Source: a phage. Taken from it: a stretch of 64,000 nt of DNA. The first letter of the stretch is position 1. Every line of letters begins with the position of its first letter. Below are positions 4,928-45,947 of this stretch, piece after piece. The notes under the pieces were generated by a model. The model worked only from the letters and a program-made list of their open reading frames with translations. It did not search any database and had not been told where the DNA came from. A program made the translations under genes and the position numbers. The stretch lies in assembly GCA_020241125.1 (NCBI GenBank), contig GCA_020241125.1_4708.1. One strand, given 5' to 3'.

Positions 4928-5555
4928 TGATACCTTCTATTAGTTGTACAGCAACTTCTTTTTCGGTGCTATAAAAGAACTTGCGATGGAACTGAACAAG
5001 AAGTTTTTCGAATTTACATTGAACGATCTTTTTGCGTTCGATATGACCCAGGGAGAGCAAAGCACCCATGCAACGTACCGCTTGTTCGAGAACTTGTTTC
5101 GCGGTATCGTGATCGTCCGGTAACGGTAAATCTTCCTCATCGTCTTTAGCGATAAGGCGTCTGATGATGTTATCGATACGTATCTCATCACCGTTAATAA
5201 AAGCCCCCTTCTCCCAGTCATCGAATCGTTGATGGATTCGACGTTGTAAGTTGGCCCTGTCTTCCATTAACTCTTTCAACTGGCTTTCTAAATGGGATAC
5301 GGTACGGCGGTCGGTTTCAGTGAAGTTTTCCGATTCTTTGTACCACCAATCATTACGCGATAGTAAATCGTTAACGCGCGAAATCGTCCGACGACACTCA
5401 CTAACAAGCCCGTCACCATTCGGTAGCTCTGTACCAAAATAGCATTTGTATTTATAACGCATAACACGGATTAAACGTTTCGCTAGAAAACCTTGCCTTT
5501 CCAGTTTCTTCTTCAGTTGTGTGTATTTCTCTTCTTTTGTTTCCATTAATTCCAT
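4914..5555 (-). CDS. hypothetical protein (213 aa)
   Basis: ORF track. Confidence 0.55.
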   Translation of the reverse strand: MELMETKEEKYTQLKKKLERQGFLAKRLIRVMRYKYKCYFGTELPNGDGLVSECRRTISRVNDLLSRNDWWYKESENFTETDRRTVSHLESQLKELMEDRANLQRRIHQRFDDWEKGAFINGDEIRIDNIIRRLIAKDDEEDLPLPDDHDTAKQVLEQAVRCMGALLSLGHIERKKIVQCKFEKLLVQFHRKFFYSTEKEVAVQLIEGINEVK

Positions 5556-5944
5556 GATGTTGTACCTCGTTCAGCAATCAGGAGAGTCGTGGTTGTGCTT
5601 TTCACTAATCTATTAAAGTCTTGATATATCCGCCTGAGGGATGATTTCAAATCACAATAACGGCTGAAATAAACCTTCAAGTCATCTTTTGTCACAGTCT
5701 CCGTATTTATTTTCGTAGAAACACCGAGATCGATAAACTCTTTTCTTAATTGGGATAATTCATCAAGAAGTCGATGATGGCTTAGATAAATAACAGATTT
5801 ATCGGATAACAACTCGCCGGTTATCCGGCTCTGGCGTTCATCGAAATATTGGAGCCGCCATTCAATTCGCTTACGTAATTTATCAAGTAAATCAACAAAA
5901 GCGGTATAGCTGTTAACGGCTAGGTTAACTTGACTCGTTATCAT
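5546..5944 (-). CDS. hypothetical protein (132 aa)
   Basis: ORF track. Confidence 0.5.
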   Translation of the reverse strand: MITSQVNLAVNSYTAFVDLLDKLRKRIEWRLQYFDERQSRITGELLSDKSVIYLSHHRLLDELSQLRKEFIDLGVSTKINTETVTKDDLKVYFSRYCDLKSSLRRIYQDFNRLVKSTTTTLLIAERGTTSWN

Positions 5945-8509: not shown

Positions 8510-9394
8510 TCAATAACGACCGTAGCGTTCCTCGAGCCGTTTTGGTTTTCTCAGAAGGCTATCTTTAAGTGGTACGACGTCGATATCAACACTCTCTGAG
8601 TAATAGCCGTTAGAACTACCATACCAACGGATAACAACACAACCCTTTGCAGTACGGATATGGTAAAATGTCCATTGTATACGTTCGCTGTAATAACCGT
8701 AGTTATCGGTTCTTTCCTCGGTTCTTTCTTCAGCACTGAGTATCTTTTCACCGATGATATCATTAATATCGCCGTCAATGTCTTCAAGATACACCTCTTC
8801 GCAGCAATCCTGCTGATGACAGAATTCGACAACGTTTCCATCACCACGATAGAAAAGAAGGGCGATACCGTTTCGTAATTGCTCGCTCGTTACATCAGAC
8901 ACACAATGCAAACTTTTATCGTCGGTAATCACCAAGACGTTGTTGATTACATGTCCGGCAAGCGCTCCGATCTTATTTACCGTGATAATCGGACGAACCG
9001 GTTCAGATTGAACGATAGGAATACGGACACAACCAATTAAAGCCATCCGTCCTTTCTTTGGTCTAACCGCAAGATACGGTGATTTTCTTGGGTGGTTATG
9101 TAGTCGTATTTCTACTTCGTTGAATTTAATCCCGTATGAACACAGAAAATAATTGAATAGTTTACGGAATTCCTCGGTTGCTTCTTGCAACGTGATGTTA
9201 TTTACTGTGAGTTTATGTCCCCTGAACACCCGGGTTAGATCGATAACATCCAGCGTTTTGAAATATATTTCCGTAAGGGGATGACCTGTGTATTCCAGGC
9301 AAGTAATTGTTCTTTGAACCACGATTTTAGGTTGTGCACCTTTAAAACGTTTCAGGTATTTAACACGATAGCGTGTATGATCTGATGTTAACAT
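8510..9394 (-). CDS. hypothetical protein (~294 aa; start moved to internal ATG with GGAGAGGAG RBS)
   Basis: ORF track 8510..9493; the longer N-terminus would overlap a terminator hairpin. Confidence 0.5.
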   Translation of the reverse strand: MLTSDHTRYRVKYLKRFKGAQPKIVVQRTITCLEYTGHPLTEIYFKTLDVIDLTRVFRGHKLTVNNITLQEATEEFRKLFNYFLCSYGIKFNEVEIRLHNHPRKSPYLAVRPKKGRMALIGCVRIPIVQSEPVRPIITVNKIGALAGHVINNVLVITDDKSLHCVSDVTSEQLRNGIALLFYRGDGNVVEFCHQQDCCEEVYLEDIDGDINDIIGEKILSAEERTEERTDNYGYYSERIQWTFYHIRTAKGCVVIRWYGSSNGYYSESVDIDVVPLKDSLLRKPKRLEERYGRY

Positions 9395-9467
9395 TTTAAT
9401 CTCCTCTCCCGACTTCAGAGAATTCTTAAAATCCGTTAGTTTTGATAGATAGGGTAAGACGGCATAA

Positions 9468-9490
9468 AAGCATCCCATTACGGGATGCTT
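9468..9490 (-). terminator. hairpin (AAGCATCCC/GGGATGCTT) with UUUUAUGCCG tail in minus sense
   Basis: Inverted repeat directly after stop of 9502..10050. Confidence 0.5.
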
Positions 9491-9501
9491 CATTAATCAG
9501 C

Positions 9502-11476: not shown

Positions 11477-12730
11477 TCACTTCAGAAGCTTAGACGCCGC
11501 CATGCTTCGCGCCTTCGCAACGTCATACGCATCCATGATTGCGTCACCGATAGCGGTATGACGGATCAACGGAATACCCATATCTGGATACTCTTTGGTA
11601 CCTAAGATGGATACCGGTTTGTCTTGATATGCGGCAATCATCGAACGGATATCCTGAACCTGGTTATAACGACAAACTGGCTTAAAGCCTGCTTTACGGA
11701 ACCAATGCTCTAATTGAGGCCAATCTGTTTCACCGCGAGCAAGATAATAGAAGGCATCCTTACCGTAATATTCGGTCATTTCATCACGGATATTGTTAAC
11801 AAACGCATTCACTGTGGTAATGGCTTCTTTATAGTCCATCACTCCGTCATGCTGAAAACAATAGTCGCGCGCTTCCTTCGGTGCTTTGGTTTGCCACCAT
11901 TCTACCGTGGACTTACTAATATCACCACCATCAGCGATTTGACCATAAACGTCAGGGAAGATATCTATACGTGGGCCGTTAATAACAGATTCTGGATTAG
12001 CTAGATCAAAGAACAAGATGCCGATTTCCAGCAGTACCCCGTTCTTTTCCAGACTGAGATTCTCCACATCCAGGCAAAACGCAGGTTTCTCTACCGCTGA
12101 AAAATCAAAATATCCTTCGAAACGTGGCGTTGGTTCAGCAGCGAGAAACGTCTCATGGACGAACTGAGAGAATGTCTTATTCTCTGCTACTAAGTCAATG
12201 CCCAATTTACTTAGCAGTGGTATAAGCGCACGGTCGTTCTGCTCGATTATCACCAACTCTTGGTTTTTGATATAACGACCAATTGAGTAAAAAAGATGAA
12301 CGATATCTAACGGTTTATACGGAGCCCCAAATGTTGTTCCCTGGAACGACTGAGCTAGCGCCTTATGCGTTTCTTCGCGATGATTCATCAGTTGGATAAT
12401 AGCGCAGCGCAGATAATACCGTAATGTTATCTCGTGAAGATGCGACGTATCTTCCTGAAATAACGTCATGAAACCGTGATACGTATAATACTCTCCTCTT
12501 TTAATTTCTTCGAGGAGTTCTTTGTCCCCATTTATTTCCTCTGGTGTTATCGGTTCGATTTGATCGTGGATAATGTTGAGCAGGTCACTGCCGTGTACCT
12601 TAAACAGTTTTTCAACGTCAAGATTAGGTAAAGTCGCAATCGCCGCGTACATTAATGTTTCTGCGGGATTAAGTTCTTTATTGTCAATTGTGATGGTTAA
12701 AGCCATTTTGTTATACCTCATCGAAATCAA
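11477..12730 (-). CDS. putative 3'-5' exonuclease, DnaQ-like DEDDh-type C-terminal domain (417 aa)
   Basis: CLDVENLSL (Exo I-like D-x-E) and IRHTAIGDAIMDAYDV (Exo III-like H-x-A-x-x-D...D); N-terminal ~200 aa unassigned. Confidence 0.45.
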   Translation of the reverse strand: MISMRYNKMALTITIDNKELNPAETLMYAAIATLPNLDVEKLFKVHGSDLLNIIHDQIEPITPEEINGDKELLEEIKRGEYYTYHGFMTLFQEDTSHLHEITLRYYLRCAIIQLMNHREETHKALAQSFQGTTFGAPYKPLDIVHLFYSIGRYIKNQELVIIEQNDRALIPLLSKLGIDLVAENKTFSQFVHETFLAAEPTPRFEGYFDFSAVEKPAFCLDVENLSLEKNGVLLEIGILFFDLANPESVINGPRIDIFPDVYGQIADGGDISKSTVEWWQTKAPKEARDYCFQHDGVMDYKEAITTVNAFVNNIRDEMTEYYGKDAFYYLARGETDWPQLEHWFRKAGFKPVCRYNQVQDIRSMIAAYQDKPVSILGTKEYPDMGIPLIRHTAIGDAIMDAYDVAKARSMAASKLLK

Positions 12731-12731
12731 A

Positions 12732-13073
12732 TTAGTTCAGTTCTGGTTTATTAGCAGCCAAACCAAGTCCAGCTAATATCACGTAGTCGTACCAAGCTTT
12801 TACTTTTGCTTTCGCCTCATCTAAACTATCTGCGTTGATGTGCGAAAACTCATCGTTGACTGGGAAAGGTGAATCGCAGTCGTAGCTTGTATAGTCTTTC
12901 CAACCTTTCCATTCGATAGTTAGAGAACCAAAAACGGTCTCAGCAACAACGTGGTTATAGCGACATTCTTCACATGGCGAGCGCTCTTCCGACCAAACAA
13001 GCTCATGCTGCGCTAAAAGTTGTTGTACGACCGATAACGGTTGCTCTTCATTAAGTTCGATGCTGTCTATCAT
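12732..13073 (-). CDS. hypothetical protein (113 aa)
   Basis: ORF track. Confidence 0.5.
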   Translation of the reverse strand: MIDSIELNEEQPLSVVQQLLAQHELVWSEERSPCEECRYNHVVAETVFGSLTIEWKGWKDYTSYDCDSPFPVNDEFSHINADSLDEAKAKVKAWYDYVILAGLGLAANKPELN

Positions 13074-17471: not shown

Positions 17472-18029
17472 TTACTCCATCCATACTTCTTCGTCGTAAT
17501 GATTTTCTATCGCATTACGCCAAAAACGTACGGTGTCCAAACTAATCGGTGCGTAAAAATGTTGGTCAACGCCGACGTTAAGTCCGTTGGCCTTCGCTAA
17601 CATACAACGATGAATATGCCCGAATAGATTAAAGTAGCCTGGGTTTCTTTCGCTGGGTTTATGGCATAGCCAGTAGGATTCGTCATTGCTAATCGGCAAC
17701 ACCAACGGATGTTCATAAACAGCAGCAAACCCCATACCGAGCAGTTTATCACGCCACGCTTCGAAGCTTAATCCTGTCGCTTTGTATGCGTCTTCGTCCC
17801 AATTCCCCATTACCAATTGAACCTGGATATCAGAACGAATGGCTTCCACGAACTCGAACTTACCCCAATCACCTAAATGCCATAACACACTGTTCTTTGG
17901 AAGATTGTTGATGGCTTTCAGCATATGCTGGTTCATATCGGCGACGCTTGCGAACGGACGGCGTGAATACGTCCATGTACGCTCGCTATCAAAATGGGTA
18001 TCCGACATAAAGAAGATGGGTGGGGTCAT
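17472..18029 (-). CDS. calcineurin-like metallophosphoesterase (185 aa)
   Basis: Ordered motifs FMSDTH (D-x-H), GDWG (GD), GNWD (GNH[DE]-like), GHIH (GHxH). Confidence 0.6.
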   Translation of the reverse strand: MTPPIFFMSDTHFDSERTWTYSRRPFASVADMNQHMLKAINNLPKNSVLWHLGDWGKFEFVEAIRSDIQVQLVMGNWDEDAYKATGLSFEAWRDKLLGMGFAAVYEHPLVLPISNDESYWLCHKPSERNPGYFNLFGHIHRCMLAKANGLNVGVDQHFYAPISLDTVRFWRNAIENHYDEEVWME

Positions 18030-18508
18030 TGATCTAATTGCTCCAGAAATGCACGACCCGATTTACTTGCTTTTAAATGCTGTTCTGCGGAAGTAAGCAG
18101 AAGATCGGTTGGCGTGTATGCAGCGCTACCTTTCCACTCTGTTTTCAGTTTACCCTCTTCGATACTGAACTGAATCAGTTGTTGGGTACCGAAGTTAAGC
18201 GTGTTCGTCGCGGCGCTAAATACGCCACCCATCATGCTGTAACCAAAGACTTTCACGTTTTCCGTGTAGAAGTCATTGTCGATCAATTTGTTCTGGAGCT
18301 CGAGTTGGTCGGACGGCAGCAATCCTCCGTCAAAGACACTTAAAATACCAGCCAGGCGATACATACTCACCTTTCCTGAAACGCCCACCACGTAATTGCC
18401 GTACAGTGTTTCTTCCAGTTTAGCAACAACGGTGCGATCGTCGGAGGTTTTCATCGAAACCTCAATACCATCACCAACTTCTGTTAACGTTAAATCAACG
18501 ATACTCAT
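18026..18508 (-). CDS. hypothetical protein (160 aa)
   Basis: ORF track. Confidence 0.5.
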   Translation of the reverse strand: MSIVDLTLTEVGDGIEVSMKTSDDRTVVAKLEETLYGNYVVGVSGKVSMYRLAGILSVFDGGLLPSDQLELQNKLIDNDFYTENVKVFGYSMMGGVFSAATNTLNFGTQQLIQFSIEEGKLKTEWKGSAAYTPTDLLLTSAEQHLKASKSGRAFLEQLDQ

Positions 18509-21507: not shown

Positions 21508-21513
21508 TTAAGA

Positions 21514-21552
21514 AGCTCTGCCTGATGTCAGGCAGAGCTTTATGCTGTATTT
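21514..21552 (+). terminator. intrinsic terminator (12-bp perfect stem AGCTCTGCCTGA/TCAGGCAGAGCT + TTATGCTGTATTTG)
   Basis: Directly after SNF2 stop. Confidence 0.7.
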
Positions 21553-21607: not shown

Positions 21608-23062
21608 ATGAAACTCAAACAAAGCTGGAAAGACGAACTTCTCGCGTTAGTAAACAGCAAAAACAGTTTACAACTGACATTAGACGATGTAAAATTTGAA
21701 CTAACGGCACCGGTAAGCGAAGTGCCTGGAACGGTCGTTGTTACAATCAAACCGAACGATAATAGTCGCTACTTTAACGAGCAGTCTCTGACCTACATCC
21801 GTCGAGACATCGCTAAAAACTTCACCGGGATCCCGTTACGGGTTATCGTTAAGCAAGATACCGCTGTAAGGGATATCATCAATACGATTGCTGAACGTTA
21901 CGGATTGGTATTTGACACAGCCGTCGACTTCCTCGAATCCGAGCTGAATAAACAAATTACGTTCGCAGACACCGGTATTAAAGACATTACGGTTCCGGTT
22001 GCAAACACGTCTTATGTTTGGGCGGGTAATCTTCAGTTCAATATTGCTAACGATACGTTAAGCTTGATTACTATCATCAAGAAAACCGATCTTACGAATC
22101 TGGTTTATCTGGATGGTGTTGAAGCTGACACATCTGGTTCGTTACTATTAGCAACCGCAGCACTTGTTAACGAACACGTAAATGAACCGATGGTTGAAAA
22201 CGAAGATATCGTTAATGAATTTATTAACGTTCTTAATACTCTAGCCAAATATGGTGACATAACCGGCGATGAATTAGATGCCGCCTTACAAGCGTACGAT
22301 GAAGCAGAAAACAGGAATAAAACCACGGTAATAACTCTTGGTGATATCCAGTGTGTTGCAACAGAAAAAGACGATTGGGAAATTGGACGTTTACGCGGTC
22401 AGATGGTTCTCGCGCTCAAATCCGATAAATACCCGGAGCCCGATAACACGTTCAGGTTGTTTACGAATGGTGGTGACGTATCGCTAACGTTAAACACAAT
22501 GAAAGATATAAGTATCGATTGGGGTGATGGGAATAAAGTAACGTTGGATGCTGAAGAAAGATACGCGCACCACACATACGCCGACAATAACCAGTACCAA
22601 ATCGAAATTGTGTCTCGTACGGACCCAGATGTGCTGCGACCAAATTATATTTCTGGGAGTGAGATAACCGAAGTAATTCACTGGGCTACTACTTCAACAA
22701 TAGCTCTGAATTTTGTTGGATGCGATAATTTAGCGACTGTTCCAGATGAGATCCCAACTTCGTGGACAACGTTGGACAGCATGTTTGAAAGTTGTACGAA
22801 TTTGAATGATCCGTCTATCTCTAACTGGAATACAAGTAACATCACATCAATGAATGGTATGTTCGGCGGATGCACTAAATTTAACCAACCTTTAGCTGCC
22901 TGGGATGTCAGCTCAGTAACTGACATTGGTGGTATGTTTAACGGATGCAACAGTTTTAACCAAGATTTAAGTGGGTGGCGATTACCGTCAGGAGTAACCC
23001 ACGACAATTACGATAGTGGTGCTTTCTCGTGGCAGACGGAACATAAACCGACGTTCCAGTAA
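21608..23062 (+). CDS. protein with C-terminal DUF285/BspA-type leucine-rich repeats (484 aa)
   Basis: C-terminal repeats NFVGCDNLATVPDEIPTSWTTLDSMFESCTNLNDPSISNWNTSNITSMNGMFGGCTKFNQPLAAWDVSSVTDIGGMFNGCNSFNQDLSGW match the FxxCxxF-NQDIS-xWDVSxVTxMxxMF pattern. Confidence 0.7.
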   Translation: MKLKQSWKDELLALVNSKNSLQLTLDDVKFELTAPVSEVPGTVVVTIKPNDNSRYFNEQSLTYIRRDIAKNFTGIPLRVIVKQDTAVRDIINTIAERYGLVFDTAVDFLESELNKQITFADTGIKDITVPVANTSYVWAGNLQFNIANDTLSLITIIKKTDLTNLVYLDGVEADTSGSLLLATAALVNEHVNEPMVENEDIVNEFINVLNTLAKYGDITGDELDAALQAYDEAENRNKTTVITLGDIQCVATEKDDWEIGRLRGQMVLALKSDKYPEPDNTFRLFTNGGDVSLTLNTMKDISIDWGDGNKVTLDAEERYAHHTYADNNQYQIEIVSRTDPDVLRPNYISGSEITEVIHWATTSTIALNFVGCDNLATVPDEIPTSWTTLDSMFESCTNLNDPSISNWNTSNITSMNGMFGGCTKFNQPLAAWDVSSVTDIGGMFNGCNSFNQDLSGWRLPSGVTHDNYDSGAFSWQTEHKPTFQ

Positions 23063-23083
23063 AAAAAAAAATAGTTAGCATAT

Positions 23084-23122
23084 CTTCCTCCCTACCCATA
23101 ACGGGCGGGGAGGAAGGTTTTA
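23084..23122 (+). terminator. intrinsic terminator (CTTCCTCCC/GGGGAGGAAG + GTTTTATGG)
   Basis: Follows stop and an A11 run at 23061-23071. Confidence 0.65.
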
Positions 23123-23134
23123 TGGCGTTATGAC

Positions 23135-23473
23135 TTAGAACCAGAGTTCTTTCATGAAGTAGGCTTCCGTATCGTAGATAAGCCACCCATCGGGGATTTC
23201 TAAAGGATCGTCTTCGGTTAAGGTGAGCATGTGCAGGGCGAACGCACGCTTAATATCTTCCAACAGCTTATCATCACCGTAACCTTCGGGTAGTTTACGG
23301 TCAGCCAGCTGAGTTTGTTTATAGACATCGCGGAACGCTTCAGGATTATGTTTATCCATCGGGAATTGTTCAGCAGCCTGAACCATCGAAAGCGTCCAGC
23401 TTACAACATTGTAACGCTCACCGTTAATTTCACTGAACTGATCATCGATTAAACAGATTTGTTGTATATTCAT
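23135..23473 (-). CDS. hypothetical protein (112 aa)
   Basis: ORF track. Confidence 0.5.
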   Translation of the reverse strand: MNIQQICLIDDQFSEINGERYNVVSWTLSMVQAAEQFPMDKHNPEAFRDVYKQTQLADRKLPEGYGDDKLLEDIKRAFALHMLTLTEDDPLEIPDGWLIYDTEAYFMKELWF

Positions 23474-24431: not shown

Positions 24432-26006
24432 TTACAATTCAAAATCTTCATCGATAACGCGCTGGGTAAGCACTTTGTCGCTGAAGAACTCCACCTTGCG
24501 CTGATGGTATTTACGATGTGCTTCTATCGAAGTACATACCAGATACCAGAACGTTGGTGTCATTCCTTCAAACTTCCCTTTCAGCTGACGTAGCCGTCCC
24601 AACACCTGAATGTTACCGGTTCGTGACCCCATCGCTAACGTCATGAACGTCATCACCAAGTCAGGAAGGTCGATGCCCGTACCTGCCGATTTCACGGTTG
24701 TAACGCTAATATCGTTATCCAACAAGACCATGAAATCTTCTTCAGCAGTATAAGGACCAATCTCTAACTCAGGAATACGTTCACTGAGATAATGCGACAA
24801 CGACTTACACATATCGACGGTTGCACAATACACCAGCATCTTCATACCTTCCTGATACTGGTTCATGAAACCTTTGATTATAACGGTATAGATGAAGTTA
24901 AAGTACGCGAGTTTGAGTTGCTTGTTCTTCATGATAGACTGTTCGAATATCGTGTGAGAATAAGAACCCCCAAAGCCTTTGTATCTGACTTTATCTGTAC
25001 TGCGTAGTCGATACGTCACGGCATTTACCGCAATGTATTTCTTGTATTCGCATTTCGCATAACGTGCTTCTTTCGGATACATCAAATACAACATCCGCTC
25101 GATGAACGGATCGTCGGACACCGCCGTTGCTGACAGATAGATGATTTCCGGAATATTCGCGTAGCACTTCACTTTGAACAAGAAATGCAAAGCTTCGTGA
25201 CATTCGTCATGGATTAACAACCCAATGCCTGTTTTCTCCCAGAACTCGACTGGATGGAAAACATACGGTGCGACACAGTTGTTCTTTTCATAATCGGTTA
25301 TGTATCTCTGAAACATGTTCAGTGAGAATAACGCAATTTTGAAATCCAGCTCACCTTGTTCCACCAACATCTGGAATTCCAGCATGCTGTAACGAGGAAT
25401 GTCGGGATGCGGTGGGTCAGATTGGGCTGTACCGCGTATCTCGATAACATCACCTGGTTCCATACCGAAGAAACTTAGCAACGAGCTGCGCCATCCAGGC
25501 ATGTATCTCGGTGACAGAATAATGCCCGTCCGTACACCACGTCGGAAAGTGATCTCCTGCGACATGGCTGTTTTACCACTGCCCGTGCCTGCGGTGTTTA
25601 GGCTCATTCTGAAGGGGGTATCCTTACCCCCGTCCATGTACTCCAACCATTCTTGCTGATCTTGACGCCATGGAAACTTCCATTTCTTTACGAACTCCAC
25701 TTCTTTACCTGGTACCGGATCGTGATAGACGATTTCCAACCACTCTTTTCGTATCCCTCGAGAAAAGATAAAATCCAAAAACGATTTCAACTGTTCACGG
25801 AGTAAGTATACCTCGCTATAATCGCTTCTTGCCGCGGCATACGTGTTTATGGTATCGGTAACCATTCTCCGTGTACGAGGATCGCGTCGTTTCCTCAGAT
25901 GCAAACAACGGTCTCGAAGGTAATGGCCGATAAGATGGGCAAATCGAAGTCCGTATCCGCTCAGCCTCATGCCGTGCGAGAAGACGTCGATACGAGCTAA
26001 CTTCAT
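24432..26006 (-). CDS. superfamily-2 DExH-box helicase (524 aa)
   Basis: NTAGTGSGKT (Walker A), LLIHDECHE (DExH), LSATAV (SAT), TVKSAGTGIDLPD (motif V), QVLGRLRQ (motif VI). Confidence 0.75.
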   Translation of the reverse strand: MKLARIDVFSHGMRLSGYGLRFAHLIGHYLRDRCLHLRKRRDPRTRRMVTDTINTYAAARSDYSEVYLLREQLKSFLDFIFSRGIRKEWLEIVYHDPVPGKEVEFVKKWKFPWRQDQQEWLEYMDGGKDTPFRMSLNTAGTGSGKTAMSQEITFRRGVRTGIILSPRYMPGWRSSLLSFFGMEPGDVIEIRGTAQSDPPHPDIPRYSMLEFQMLVEQGELDFKIALFSLNMFQRYITDYEKNNCVAPYVFHPVEFWEKTGIGLLIHDECHEALHFLFKVKCYANIPEIIYLSATAVSDDPFIERMLYLMYPKEARYAKCEYKKYIAVNAVTYRLRSTDKVRYKGFGGSYSHTIFEQSIMKNKQLKLAYFNFIYTVIIKGFMNQYQEGMKMLVYCATVDMCKSLSHYLSERIPELEIGPYTAEEDFMVLLDNDISVTTVKSAGTGIDLPDLVMTFMTLAMGSRTGNIQVLGRLRQLKGKFEGMTPTFWYLVCTSIEAHRKYHQRKVEFFSDKVLTQRVIDEDFEL

Positions 26007-44346: not shown

Positions 44347-44696
44347 CACATATCTTCAGTATGAATCGCTACTTCATACCCGCAGCATTACCTGCAGCTC
44401 CTGGTGTTACCAGGACGGAGAGATCATCTCATCACCCACGAAGGGTGTTCCGCGCTACCCTCAGCGAATTCGAGGGACATGATCGTTGAACCTTCCACCG
44501 ATAATCGGTGGCTAGGCTGCTGATTAAACATTGTACGTTGGGGTGGCATCCTGGTTCAGGACTGTCGTTGAAGCCTCCCAACATCCACTCACTTATTTCC
44601 GCCTTATCGGCTCCCATAAGGGCAGAGTGGCTTTAGCCCGTCTCAGCAATTCACGGAATTCAAGCTCTTCCTTTCAGAAGGCAGGGCCTCATCTGA
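44347..44696 (-). other. putative self-splicing intron (group I-like, 350 nt, no ORF) interrupting the beta' gene
   Basis: Exon 1 frame ends ...KGYNA and exon 2 starts DFDGD, restoring the YNADFDGD motif; 5' exon ends in U and insert ends in G; insert carries GGUUCAACGAUCAUGUC and AAGAUAU near its 3' end (resembling group I R and S elements) and several stem-loops (CCUGGUAACACCAGG). Confidence 0.55.
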
Positions 44697-45947
44697 AGCA
44701 TTGTATCCCTTAAGGATCATCACGCTTAACCCGATGGTATTATCCTGCGGATCGCGTTTAACCTTGGTGATTTCAAGACATTGGTTACTGCTTCGGTCAA
44801 GTGATGGGTTTCGAACAAAACCGCACACAATCCCATCGAACGGTGTATCAGCAATAAGCTCATCGTGCAGCTCACTCATCATCGGATGATAATTACGGAC
44901 ATGTTCCGCAACGAACGCACGTGCTGCTCTCGGTGAATAACCACGATGGAATAACTTGGATTGGATATGTTCTTTATTGGTTAAAGTAAATGGTGCGTAT
45001 GGGAAATGCAGATGATAATAACGATGGTTCGCTGTTATCGAACTGATTACAGTACGCGTGGTGAATGGATGTAATGTACCTAATATGTTTTTACGTGTGA
45101 TACCTTTCTTCTTACCGATGAACTCATCGAAAATCGCCGCATGGTATTGCAGTAGCTTCAATTGCACTTTCGCCATCCAGTTTTCTTTCTTTCTGGCGCT
45201 CAAAGGTGTTGTTGGGTGATAGATACTATTCAACGTACCGATAGCATCGATCGCACCTTCCATTTTGCTATCCGCATAACGACCGGTTGGCGTATTCTCG
45301 ATAACGAACATCATGGCCGCAGGAAAGCTGATATACTGACTGAAGAACTTATCACGATGGATACGGATGAATTCTCGTAGCGTATCAACTTTCTCCGTGT
45401 TCTTCGGTCCGCGTAACGTCGGTCCTTTATACAAGATCTCCATGATGCGATCGAAGTTCTGTATAAAACTATTTACACCGCGACGTATCCCGAATACATC
45501 GAATTGCTGCTCCAGATAGTTCTTGAGTTCGATGGGTCGTTTTACATTTGGACGGTAACTGGCATCAATGAGCCACGTCATCGTTTCAAAGCTTTTGATA
45601 TTCAACTCGCTTGCCAGCACGAGATGGACCAACGGGTTAATGAACGCATCAATTCCTTCAGGAACACGCGCCCAAACCGTCGAACGAATCTCTTGTTCTG
45701 CTGGATAGGTTACAACCGTTTTACAGTTCGGACACACCGTGCCGAGCAGCTCACCACGATTGTAGAAACCACAACCACATTGTGGCGTGATATCCAACGT
45801 ATCGCTGGAGTAAACACGGGTGATAAAACTGTTTAATTTCTTCTTCTCTTCGACGACTTTTGTATCGTAATCATTCAACAAAATCGGCGTGAAAGGAAGT
45901 TCTGCGAGCTGTCTATCGAAACTCACGATATCGAGCATGATGGCCAT
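44697..45947 (-). CDS. RNA polymerase beta'-like N-terminal subunit, exon 1 (417 aa to the GYNA junction)
   Basis: N-terminal zinc finger CGCGFYNRGELLGTVCPNCKTVV (cf beta' CxC...CxxC); TAGGAG RBS; unspliced frame continues 17 codons to a stop. Confidence 0.65.

Follow-up and report, generated by a model that had tools for sequence, protein, structure and literature searches.

The open reading frame at 21608-23062 (+) of a 64,000-nucleotide stretch of phage DNA (assembly GCA_020241125.1, contig GCA_020241125.1_4708.1; the whole stretch is referred to as the window) is complete and encodes a protein of 484 amino acids (aa) that ends in leucine-rich repeats (LRRs) of the DUF285 family. It is the positional ortholog of gp161 (YP_009820846.1) from the Escherichia phage vB_EcoM_Goslar, and its C-terminal part is an exchangeable cassette at 22155-23059 (+) (aa 183/184-484), consisting of a helical hairpin, a beta-sandwich and the LRRs, which follows a conserved DUF7941 module. 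On balance, and with moderate confidence, the protein is explained as a virion adaptor, whose DUF7941 end would join baseplate-anchored DUF7941 assemblies and whose sandwich and LRR end would bind a variable bacterial surface structure at first contact. The gene is already annotated in databases, the DUF285 domain call included, and its ortholog gp161 has already been described, so that the finding represents a new allele of a known kind. New here are the exchange of the cassette and the equivalence of a slot in the tail module, both of which are modest additions.

The window was compared with the Goslar genome by megablast. Five blocks of 93.5-97.8% identity cover all 64 kb except four segments and correspond to Goslar 125464-188963, a stretch that encodes the nuclear shell protein gp246, PhuZ gp234, and DNA polymerase and RNA polymerase beta-subunit genes. 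Overall, the window aligns with this stretch at about 96-98% identity. Judged by its sequence, the source phage is a close relative of Goslar and a chimallivirus, i.e. a nucleus-forming jumbo phage. The DUF285 gene is located between the helicase gene corresponding to gp160 and the convergent gene corresponding to gp162.

The DNA identity to Goslar amounts to ~96% up to position 22154, drops to ~50% over the rest of the open reading frame and reaches ~100% again at the stop codon. Four segments of the window lack a megablast match to Goslar, and of these only the cassette constitutes an in-frame replacement inside a gene conserved on both sides. Among all in-gene segments of the window, it also varies most relative to Goslar. 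Goslar gp161 resembles the query in locus, flanking genes, length (483 versus 484 aa) and DUF7941 plus DUF285 architecture. The N-terminal 182 residues of the two proteins are 97% identical, whereas the C-terminal 300 residues share only ~40% identity (linker 27%, beta-sandwich 36%, LRR 49%). Since the synonymous sites of the cassette are also saturated in this comparison, the query harbors a different cassette allele from gp161. The same division was found in a set of 57 orthologs (480-513 aa, most of them 482-485 aa) from Goslar-like genomes of ~235-248 kb: residues 1-182 show a mean pairwise identity of 95.6% (minimum 86%) and residues 183-484 one of 70.8% (minimum 36.6%). At 75% identity the alleles fall into five clusters for the linker, ten for the sandwich and seven for the LRR, which occur in mosaic combinations.

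The relationships of the cassette conflict with those of the genomic backbone, defined as the 20 kb around the gene. The cassette allele closest to that of the query occurs in GCA_025812035.1 (L002), which is 95-100% identical to the window in the cassette and 88-95% in the backbone, whereas Goslar and a further relative (L006) are 97-100% identical in the backbone and 35-63% in the cassette. In agreement with these values, the synonymous divergence (dS) from L002 drops from 0.23 in the N-terminal domain to 0.03-0.10 in the cassette. The ratio of non-synonymous to synonymous divergence (dN/dS) rises from 0.08 in the anchor to values of 0.26-0.56 for close alleles of the cassette, which indicates relaxed or partly diversifying selection on the cassette and no gene-wide positive selection. 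The protein combines a conserved, putatively virion-anchoring N-terminus with a variable, recombining C-terminal module, as is characteristic of receptor-binding proteins.

Two other origins of the cassette were considered. A recent foreign origin was rejected, as the cassette, with a GC content of 42.8%, is equal in this respect to the N-terminal part (42.4%) and falls inside the range of the window. A diversity-generating retroelement was rejected because the 64-kb window contains no second copy of any part of the cassette, the divergence extends over all 905 nt and synonymous sites are saturated; likewise, a phmmer search with the three protein parts against all six-frame open reading frames yielded no paralogs inside the window. 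The equal GC content and the lack of a template copy for a retroelement suggest that the alleles are old residents of the Goslar-like pool, which are shuffled by homologous recombination.

The first-pass annotation had assigned DUF285 repeats to the C-terminal ~130 residues, within a span (22650-23062) that corresponds to aa 348-484, the last 137 codons. This was borne out far beyond chance, and the motifs quoted there are present. The DUF285/PARCEL LRR solenoid occupies 22658-23059 (+; aa 351-484). A scan with PF03382/DUF285 gave a strong match of 90.1 bits, compared to a gathering cut-off of 25 (E 1.2e-25; aa 387-461, 22766-22990), and NCBIfam TIGR02167, the PARCEL 26-residue repeat, matched three stretches with 50.7 bits (cut-off 30). 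The refuting outcome named in the first-pass annotation, a lack of significant matches to PF03382, thus did not occur. The register comprises four units of 25-26 residues on the plus strand, aa 352-377 (22661-22738), 378-402 (22739-22813), 403-428 (22814-22891) and 429-453 (22892-22966), followed by a C-terminal cap at aa 454-484 (22967-23059). The motifs are FVGCDNL (aa 369-375), WNTSNITSMNGMFGGCTKFNQPL (aa 407-429) and WDVSSVTDIGGMFNGCNSFNQDL (aa 432-454). Conserved repeat positions include F393, F419, C422, N426, W432, M443, C447, F450, N451 and Q452, and column entropy peaks at the x positions around MFxGCxxF, i.e. at variable hydrophilic sites between conserved hydrophobic, Cys and Asn residues. 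The region is therefore built of the tandem units typical of DUF285/PARCEL repeats. In the nucleotide sequence, repetition can be discerned just for the last two units (49 nt with 73% identity at a spacing of 75 nt, equivalent to a period of 25 aa), and Tandem Repeats Finder reported none in the repeat region because the repeats are too diverged in DNA. A structure prediction with AlphaFold2, based on 59 homologs (mean predicted local distance difference test score, pLDDT, of 84, exceeding 90 for aa 280-484), modelled the repeat region as an LRR solenoid of short beta-strand/loop repeats, consistent with the LRR fold.

The repeats had initially been labelled "DUF285 (BspA / Mycoplasma-type)", of which the assignment to DUF285/PARCEL holds and the BspA type is not supported. 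The match to LRR_5/PF13306, the profile of BspA-type LRRs, was not significant (12.6 bits versus a cut-off of 27.7, E 0.13), which sets the phage protein apart from TpLRR/BspA-type LRR proteins (Pfam LRR_5; PDB 6mlx, 4fs7), and "BspA family" is a mere NCBI product name for DUF285 proteins. Counterparts are the bacterial DUF285/PARCEL surface proteins such as the lipoproteins of Mycoplasma and Listeria (PMC2996958), which share with the phage protein the 25-26-residue repeat passing the Pfam/TIGRFAM cut-offs as well as the alternation of variable hydrophilic with conserved hydrophobic, Cys and Asn positions. In contrast to these proteins, the phage protein contains only 4-5 repeats, is fused to a virion anchor and lacks a signal peptide or lipobox by inspection of its N-terminus (MKLKQSWKDELLALVNSKNS), which belongs to the globular DUF7941 domain. 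Many, not all, bacterial members carry a membrane-targeting or lipoprotein signal peptide, and the family has spread horizontally over unrelated taxa (PMC2996958). The initial remark that such repeats are unusual in phages is correct in that DUF285 is rare, but overstated, since the domain recurs in at least 116 of 50,697 phage records, mostly of jumbo phages, cyanophages, Lak megaphages, and Listeria and Campylobacter phages, and giant-virus proteins labelled "BspA family" are among the structural matches.

The DUF7941 module at the N-terminus (21617-22174 (+); aa 4-189) matches PF25613 with 89.4 bits versus a cut-off of 27 (E 3.7e-25). The match spans profile positions 5-195 of 276, which comprise the N-terminal domain and the linker, and leaves the C-terminal globule uncovered. 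With a PF25613 match above the cut-off and a source phage that encodes chimallin, the protein groups with the DUF7941 proteins of chimalliviruses, and its DUF7941 part falls in PHROG 1037 and 2935, both of which are described as "virion structural protein". AlphaFold2 predicts a mixed alpha/beta globule for the N-terminal domain. A search of the PDB with Foldseek gave one significant match, 9xqd_0 from the phiKZ baseplate's outer peripheral region (E 1.6e-4, probability 1.00, TMt 0.52, 21% identity), a chain of 150 residues that aligns to the DUF7941 part of the query; phmmer and profile searches of the PDB sequences returned no relative of the protein. On the basis of two papers, and not of its sequence, this chain would correspond to phiKZ gp127. 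The phiKZ DUF7941 protein gp127 is located in the outer peripheral baseplate, where it forms the terminus of the gp139 dimer band of every star lobe, and gp127, gp126 and other chimallivirus DUF7941 proteins share the N-terminal globular fold with the query (PDB 9XQD; PMC13250141). The DUF7941 module is therefore proposed to be a virion or filament anchor.

The anchor ends in a linker at 22085-22156 (+; aa 160-183, TDLTNLVYLDGVEADTSGSLLLAT) that is predicted with low confidence (pLDDT 49-65, below 50 at aa 164-170) despite a column identity of 94%. The conserved block ends with this linker, and the 5' boundary of the cassette falls exactly behind it. By analogy with other DUF7941 proteins, it may act as a docking peptide for head-to-tail DUF7941 assembly. 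A two-helix hairpin at 22211-22303 (+; aa 202-232; AlphaFold2/DSSP helices 202-214 and 220-232, pLDDT ~80-85) joins the anchor to the distal domains. It is followed by a beta-sandwich at 22322-22657 (+; aa 239-350; AlphaFold2 strands with pLDDT 79-96), which displays a PKD-like WGDG...HxY signature with invariant G306, D307 and G308 and is the most variable part of the protein (mean column entropy 0.95, the highest of the four segments). As the PKD_4 match of this domain is below the cut-off (E 0.027) and the jelly-roll and carbohydrate-binding module matches in Foldseek are weak (E at least 0.05), it is named just a PKD-like beta-sandwich.

Direct data on the ortholog are available from a preprint of April 2026, which reports the cryo-electron microscopy structure of Goslar together with quantitative virion proteomics and describes ten DUF7941 proteins (bioRxiv 10.64898/2026.04.21.720040). 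Among them, gp86, gp92 and gp161 were grouped as DUF7941 proteins with host-recognition domains, and a role in host recognition was proposed for gp161. In purified virions gp161 was represented by 27 peptides with 53.8% coverage, one of the peptides being derived from the DUF285 region, and by an estimated ~111 (74-174) copies per virion (bioRxiv 10.64898/2026.04.21.720040, Table S4). According to the same source, purified gp22 forms filaments in negative-stain electron microscopy, AlphaFold models of gp22/gp23 predict the disordered linker of one protomer to dock head-to-tail on the N-terminal domain of the next, and the peripheral baseplate was proposed to anchor a "DUF7941 fiber cloud". A word search on variability, recombination and diversification found none in the text of this preprint (bioRxiv 10.64898/2026.04.21.720040). 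A further preprint (Kanhirun et al. 2024) yielded nothing of relevance.

The homologs also include a class of 584-aa proteins with DUF7941 and a longer DUF285 array (E 1.9e-45). These were considered as alleles of the locus at 21608-23062, which was rejected because they represent a paralog located in the tail-fibre module. In GCA_961210045.1 the 584-aa gene lies between the gp94 homolog and gp91 (DUF7941) and adjoins a tail-fibre gene. It replaces exactly Goslar gp93 (DUF7941) and gp92 ("tail protein", 1198 aa), the 584-aa gene being at L008 6001-7755 and gp93 plus gp92 at L009 9398-13838, so that the tail-fibre module of Goslar-like phages has a swap slot of its own. No Pfam match was obtained for Goslar gp92. 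Because the 584-aa gene fills the slot of gp93 and gp92, the DUF7941 plus DUF285 architecture is interchangeable with a tail protein in the host-recognition cluster. The tail-fibre gene beside this slot differs as well, encoding either a 967-aa protein with a Peptidase_S74 chaperone domain or a P1 gpS-like fibre that is accompanied by a separate assembly protein.

The first-pass annotation had suggested a binding function for the repeats, for example in receptor binding. Such a putative binding or receptor-binding role is indirectly supported by the match of DUF7941 to the baseplate, the detection of gp161 in virions, the exchange of the cassette and the paralog in the tail module. In a Goslar-like chimallivirus, the protein would serve as an adaptor or adhesin that is associated with the virion and borne on a baseplate filament. 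Residues 1-183, the DUF7941 module with the linker, would plug into DUF7941 assemblies or filaments suspended from the outer, peripheral part of the baseplate, and the helical hairpin, the PKD-like beta-sandwich and the short DUF285/PARCEL solenoid would form a distal binding module that recognises a bacterial cell-surface structure in initial, reversible attachment. This module would be kept as a set of anciently diverged alleles, shuffled among Goslar-like phages by homologous recombination, for which the conserved N-terminal domain on one side and, on the other, the downstream terminator region with its convergent gene would supply the homology arms. Incorporation into filaments, host-surface binding and the ligand itself are all putative. 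Modular receptor-binding proteins of tailed phages, such as the tail fibres of T-even phages, P2 and Mu and the receptor-binding proteins of lactococcal phages, likewise possess a conserved N-terminal anchor and an exchangeable C-terminal specificity domain. The query resembles them in the conserved anchor, the sharp recombination boundaries, the many diverged C-terminal alleles and the conflict between cassette and backbone; it differs in carrying an LRR solenoid on a PKD-like sandwich in place of a trimeric fibre or beta-helix and in the position of its gene outside the tail module.

Several observations weigh against an adaptor for host contact. The neighbours of the gene are replication and transcription genes, and it lies outside a structural module. 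The fold is that of a monomer-type LRR protein, unlike the trimeric fibres and beta-helices found in classical receptor-binding proteins. Chimallin (~126 copies) and PhuZ were present in the Goslar virion preparation as well, and DUF7941 density was not seen in the baseplate map (bioRxiv 10.64898/2026.04.21.720040). Due to the presence of these two proteins in the same preparation, the ~111 copies of gp161 are no proof of virion incorporation. The overall dN/dS is below 1. Finally, allele clusters of at least 90% identity are present in assemblies labelled E. coli and Salmonella alike. The cassette alleles show no partition by host genus of the carrying assembly, and the cassette is thus not a genus-level host switch. 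A more far-reaching version of the adaptor model, in which the LRR cassette and the tail-module paralog would together be a principal specificity determinant of Goslar-like phages, displayed in ~100 copies on long DUF7941 filaments and with the module traded between lineages, is put forward only tentatively and seems rather doubtful.

The evidence for virion association would apply equally to a surface adhesin with a non-host ligand, in which the filament-borne PKD-like and LRR module binds gut mucus glycans or environmental surfaces and enriches the phage near its hosts. Ig-like capsid decoration proteins have been described as enriching phages where their hosts live, and adhesion determinants and mucus interaction of Lactococcus are reportedly the subject of one study (PMC5071367). 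The lack of a split of the allele clusters by host genus would fit such a function, as would the origin of Goslar from duck dung and of its relatives from gut-derived samples and isolates. However, numerous recombining alleles of ancient divergence are rather what an arms race against a variable bacterial surface typically produces, the paralog resides in the tail-fibre module, and mucin binding is without direct evidence. This explanation is accordingly regarded as improbable.

By analogy with the LRRs of bacterial effectors, the protein could instead be packaged and act inside the cell, with its LRR binding a factor of host or phage once it has been ejected; binding of a host factor had also been named in the first-pass annotation. 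Injection of many virion proteins is known from chimalliviruses, the gene is located among early and middle-type genes, and a secretion signal is missing. Nevertheless, the phiKZ protein matched by the N-terminal domain is situated on the exterior of the baseplate, DUF7941 proteins assemble into extended filaments in vitro, the injected proteins identified to date belong to other families, and the matches to effectors reflect the generic LRR fold only, which makes an intracellular function quite unlikely. Equally unlikely is a purely architectural function, in which LRR and beta-sandwich would bind another virion component and cross-link or cap DUF7941 filaments or tail fibres without host contact. 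LRRs are generic scaffolds for protein-protein interaction, the ~111 estimated copies correspond to a low multiple of 6 per baseplate, and a network of DUF7941-DUF7941 interactions was predicted with AlphaFold (bioRxiv 10.64898/2026.04.21.720040). An internal partner would constrain the sequence, yet the cassette is the most variable part while the other virion genes in view are ~96-98% identical. It is very unlikely that the protein is no virion component, but an abundant product, late or cytoplasmic, which is carried along in the purification of virions and has an unrelated function, e.g. anti-defence by sequestering a host sensor: chimallin and PhuZ at similar estimated abundance in the virion preparation and the non-structural genomic neighbourhood would permit this, but the fold match of DUF7941 to a modelled phiKZ baseplate chain, the PHROG families of virion structural proteins and the paralog in the tail-fibre module argue against it.

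The boundaries of the gene were analyzed for regulatory elements. A terminator-like hairpin at 21512-21541 (+; RNA fold -25.3 kcal/mol, z -5.4 versus shuffles) closes the upstream helicase gene, the ortholog of Goslar gp160, and the Goslar annotation contains a terminator at the homologous site. The DUF285 gene is therefore likely to form its own transcription unit. Just 3' of the stop codon a strong hairpin is located between an A-run and a T-run (23082-23118; RNA fold -26.4 kcal/mol, z -4.2), which the convergent gene at 23135-23473 (-) probably shares as a bidirectional terminator. Goslar has a nearly identical sequence at this site, and the hairpin hence can act as the 3' homology arm of the cassette. 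Chimalliviruses transcribe with their own polymerases; a scan for sigma-70 promoters found fewer sites than in shuffled sequence and is thus uninformative. Opposite the DUF285 repeats, an antisense open reading frame of 109 aa at 22678-23007 (-) is open exactly across the repeats and is itself repetitive, which recalls the dyad-symmetric ("palindromic") coding sequence described for PARCEL repeats by Roske et al. 2010. Only one short palindrome of 18 nt was found in the repeat DNA. The antisense frame gave no family match in Pfam and was taken as a by-product. Three genes upstream of the DUF285 gene, the window encodes the 160-aa ortholog of Goslar gp158 (18026-18508 (-)), and gp158 is among the most abundant unassigned proteins of the Goslar virion, with ~926 copies by label-free mass spectrometry (bioRxiv 10.64898/2026.04.21.720040, Table S4).

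Further differences between the window and its relatives were noted outside the gene. A second locally divergent patch at 11608-12800 affects the 3'-5' exoribonuclease gene (open reading frame 11477-12730 (-), ortholog of Goslar gp147), where the DNA identity is 34-71% to the relatives L004, L005 and L007, compared to 80-95% in neighbouring genes, and ~90-99% to L002, L003 and L006. The superfamily 2 helicase at 24432-26006 (-), the ortholog of Goslar gp164, has 524 aa in the window, Goslar and L006, and 753 aa in five relatives, L002 (12823-15084), L003, L004, L005 and L007. The extra 229 aa are situated inside the Walker-A loop (GSGK|T), start with ALALHTPV and end with IVTHN followed by T; the empty site of the window is at 25572/25571. 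These features of the insert are characteristic of inteins, perhaps of the Ala-1 class, and the window would then represent the intein-free allele; Pfam Hint models matched the insert with E ~0.1 only. Goslar (NC_048170) contains at 168194-169661 an annotated group I intron with an HNH endonuclease gene beside or inside the RNA polymerase beta' gene (gp247/gp186). This ~1.47-kb segment is absent from the window, which shows, at the junction 44689-44698, an uninterrupted open reading frame of 434 aa (44643-45947 (-)). An insertion of ~0.9 kb relative to Goslar at 8510-9404 lies in an open reading frame of 327 aa with DUF7448 (8510-9493 (-); E 1.4e-23), and positions 1-660 and 5545-5940 have no megablast match in Goslar 122500-189500. 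Near-complete Goslar-like genomes (more than 100 contigs of ~235-248 kb; homologs P0001-P0104 and cluster members) occur in many isolate assemblies labelled E. coli (including O157), Shigella, Salmonella and Enterobacter, which may reflect a carrier state, co-culture or laboratory carry-over.

Nucleus-forming jumbo phages are candidates for therapy. The idea that gp161 serves in host recognition is already contained in the preprint; the evolutionary evidence presented here, i.e. the exchange of the cassette and the equivalence of the tail-module slot, makes this hypothesis directly testable. If the LRR cassette binds, its sharp conserved arms, the N-terminal domain and the terminator, would provide a natural engineering site for specificity, and public assemblies, with their dozens of natural alleles, would constitute a ready-made library. 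If the more far-reaching model is true, an LRR solenoid that is monomeric and carried by a flexible filament "cloud" would represent a new type of phage receptor-binding device, which could be re-targeted simply by swapping aa 184-484.

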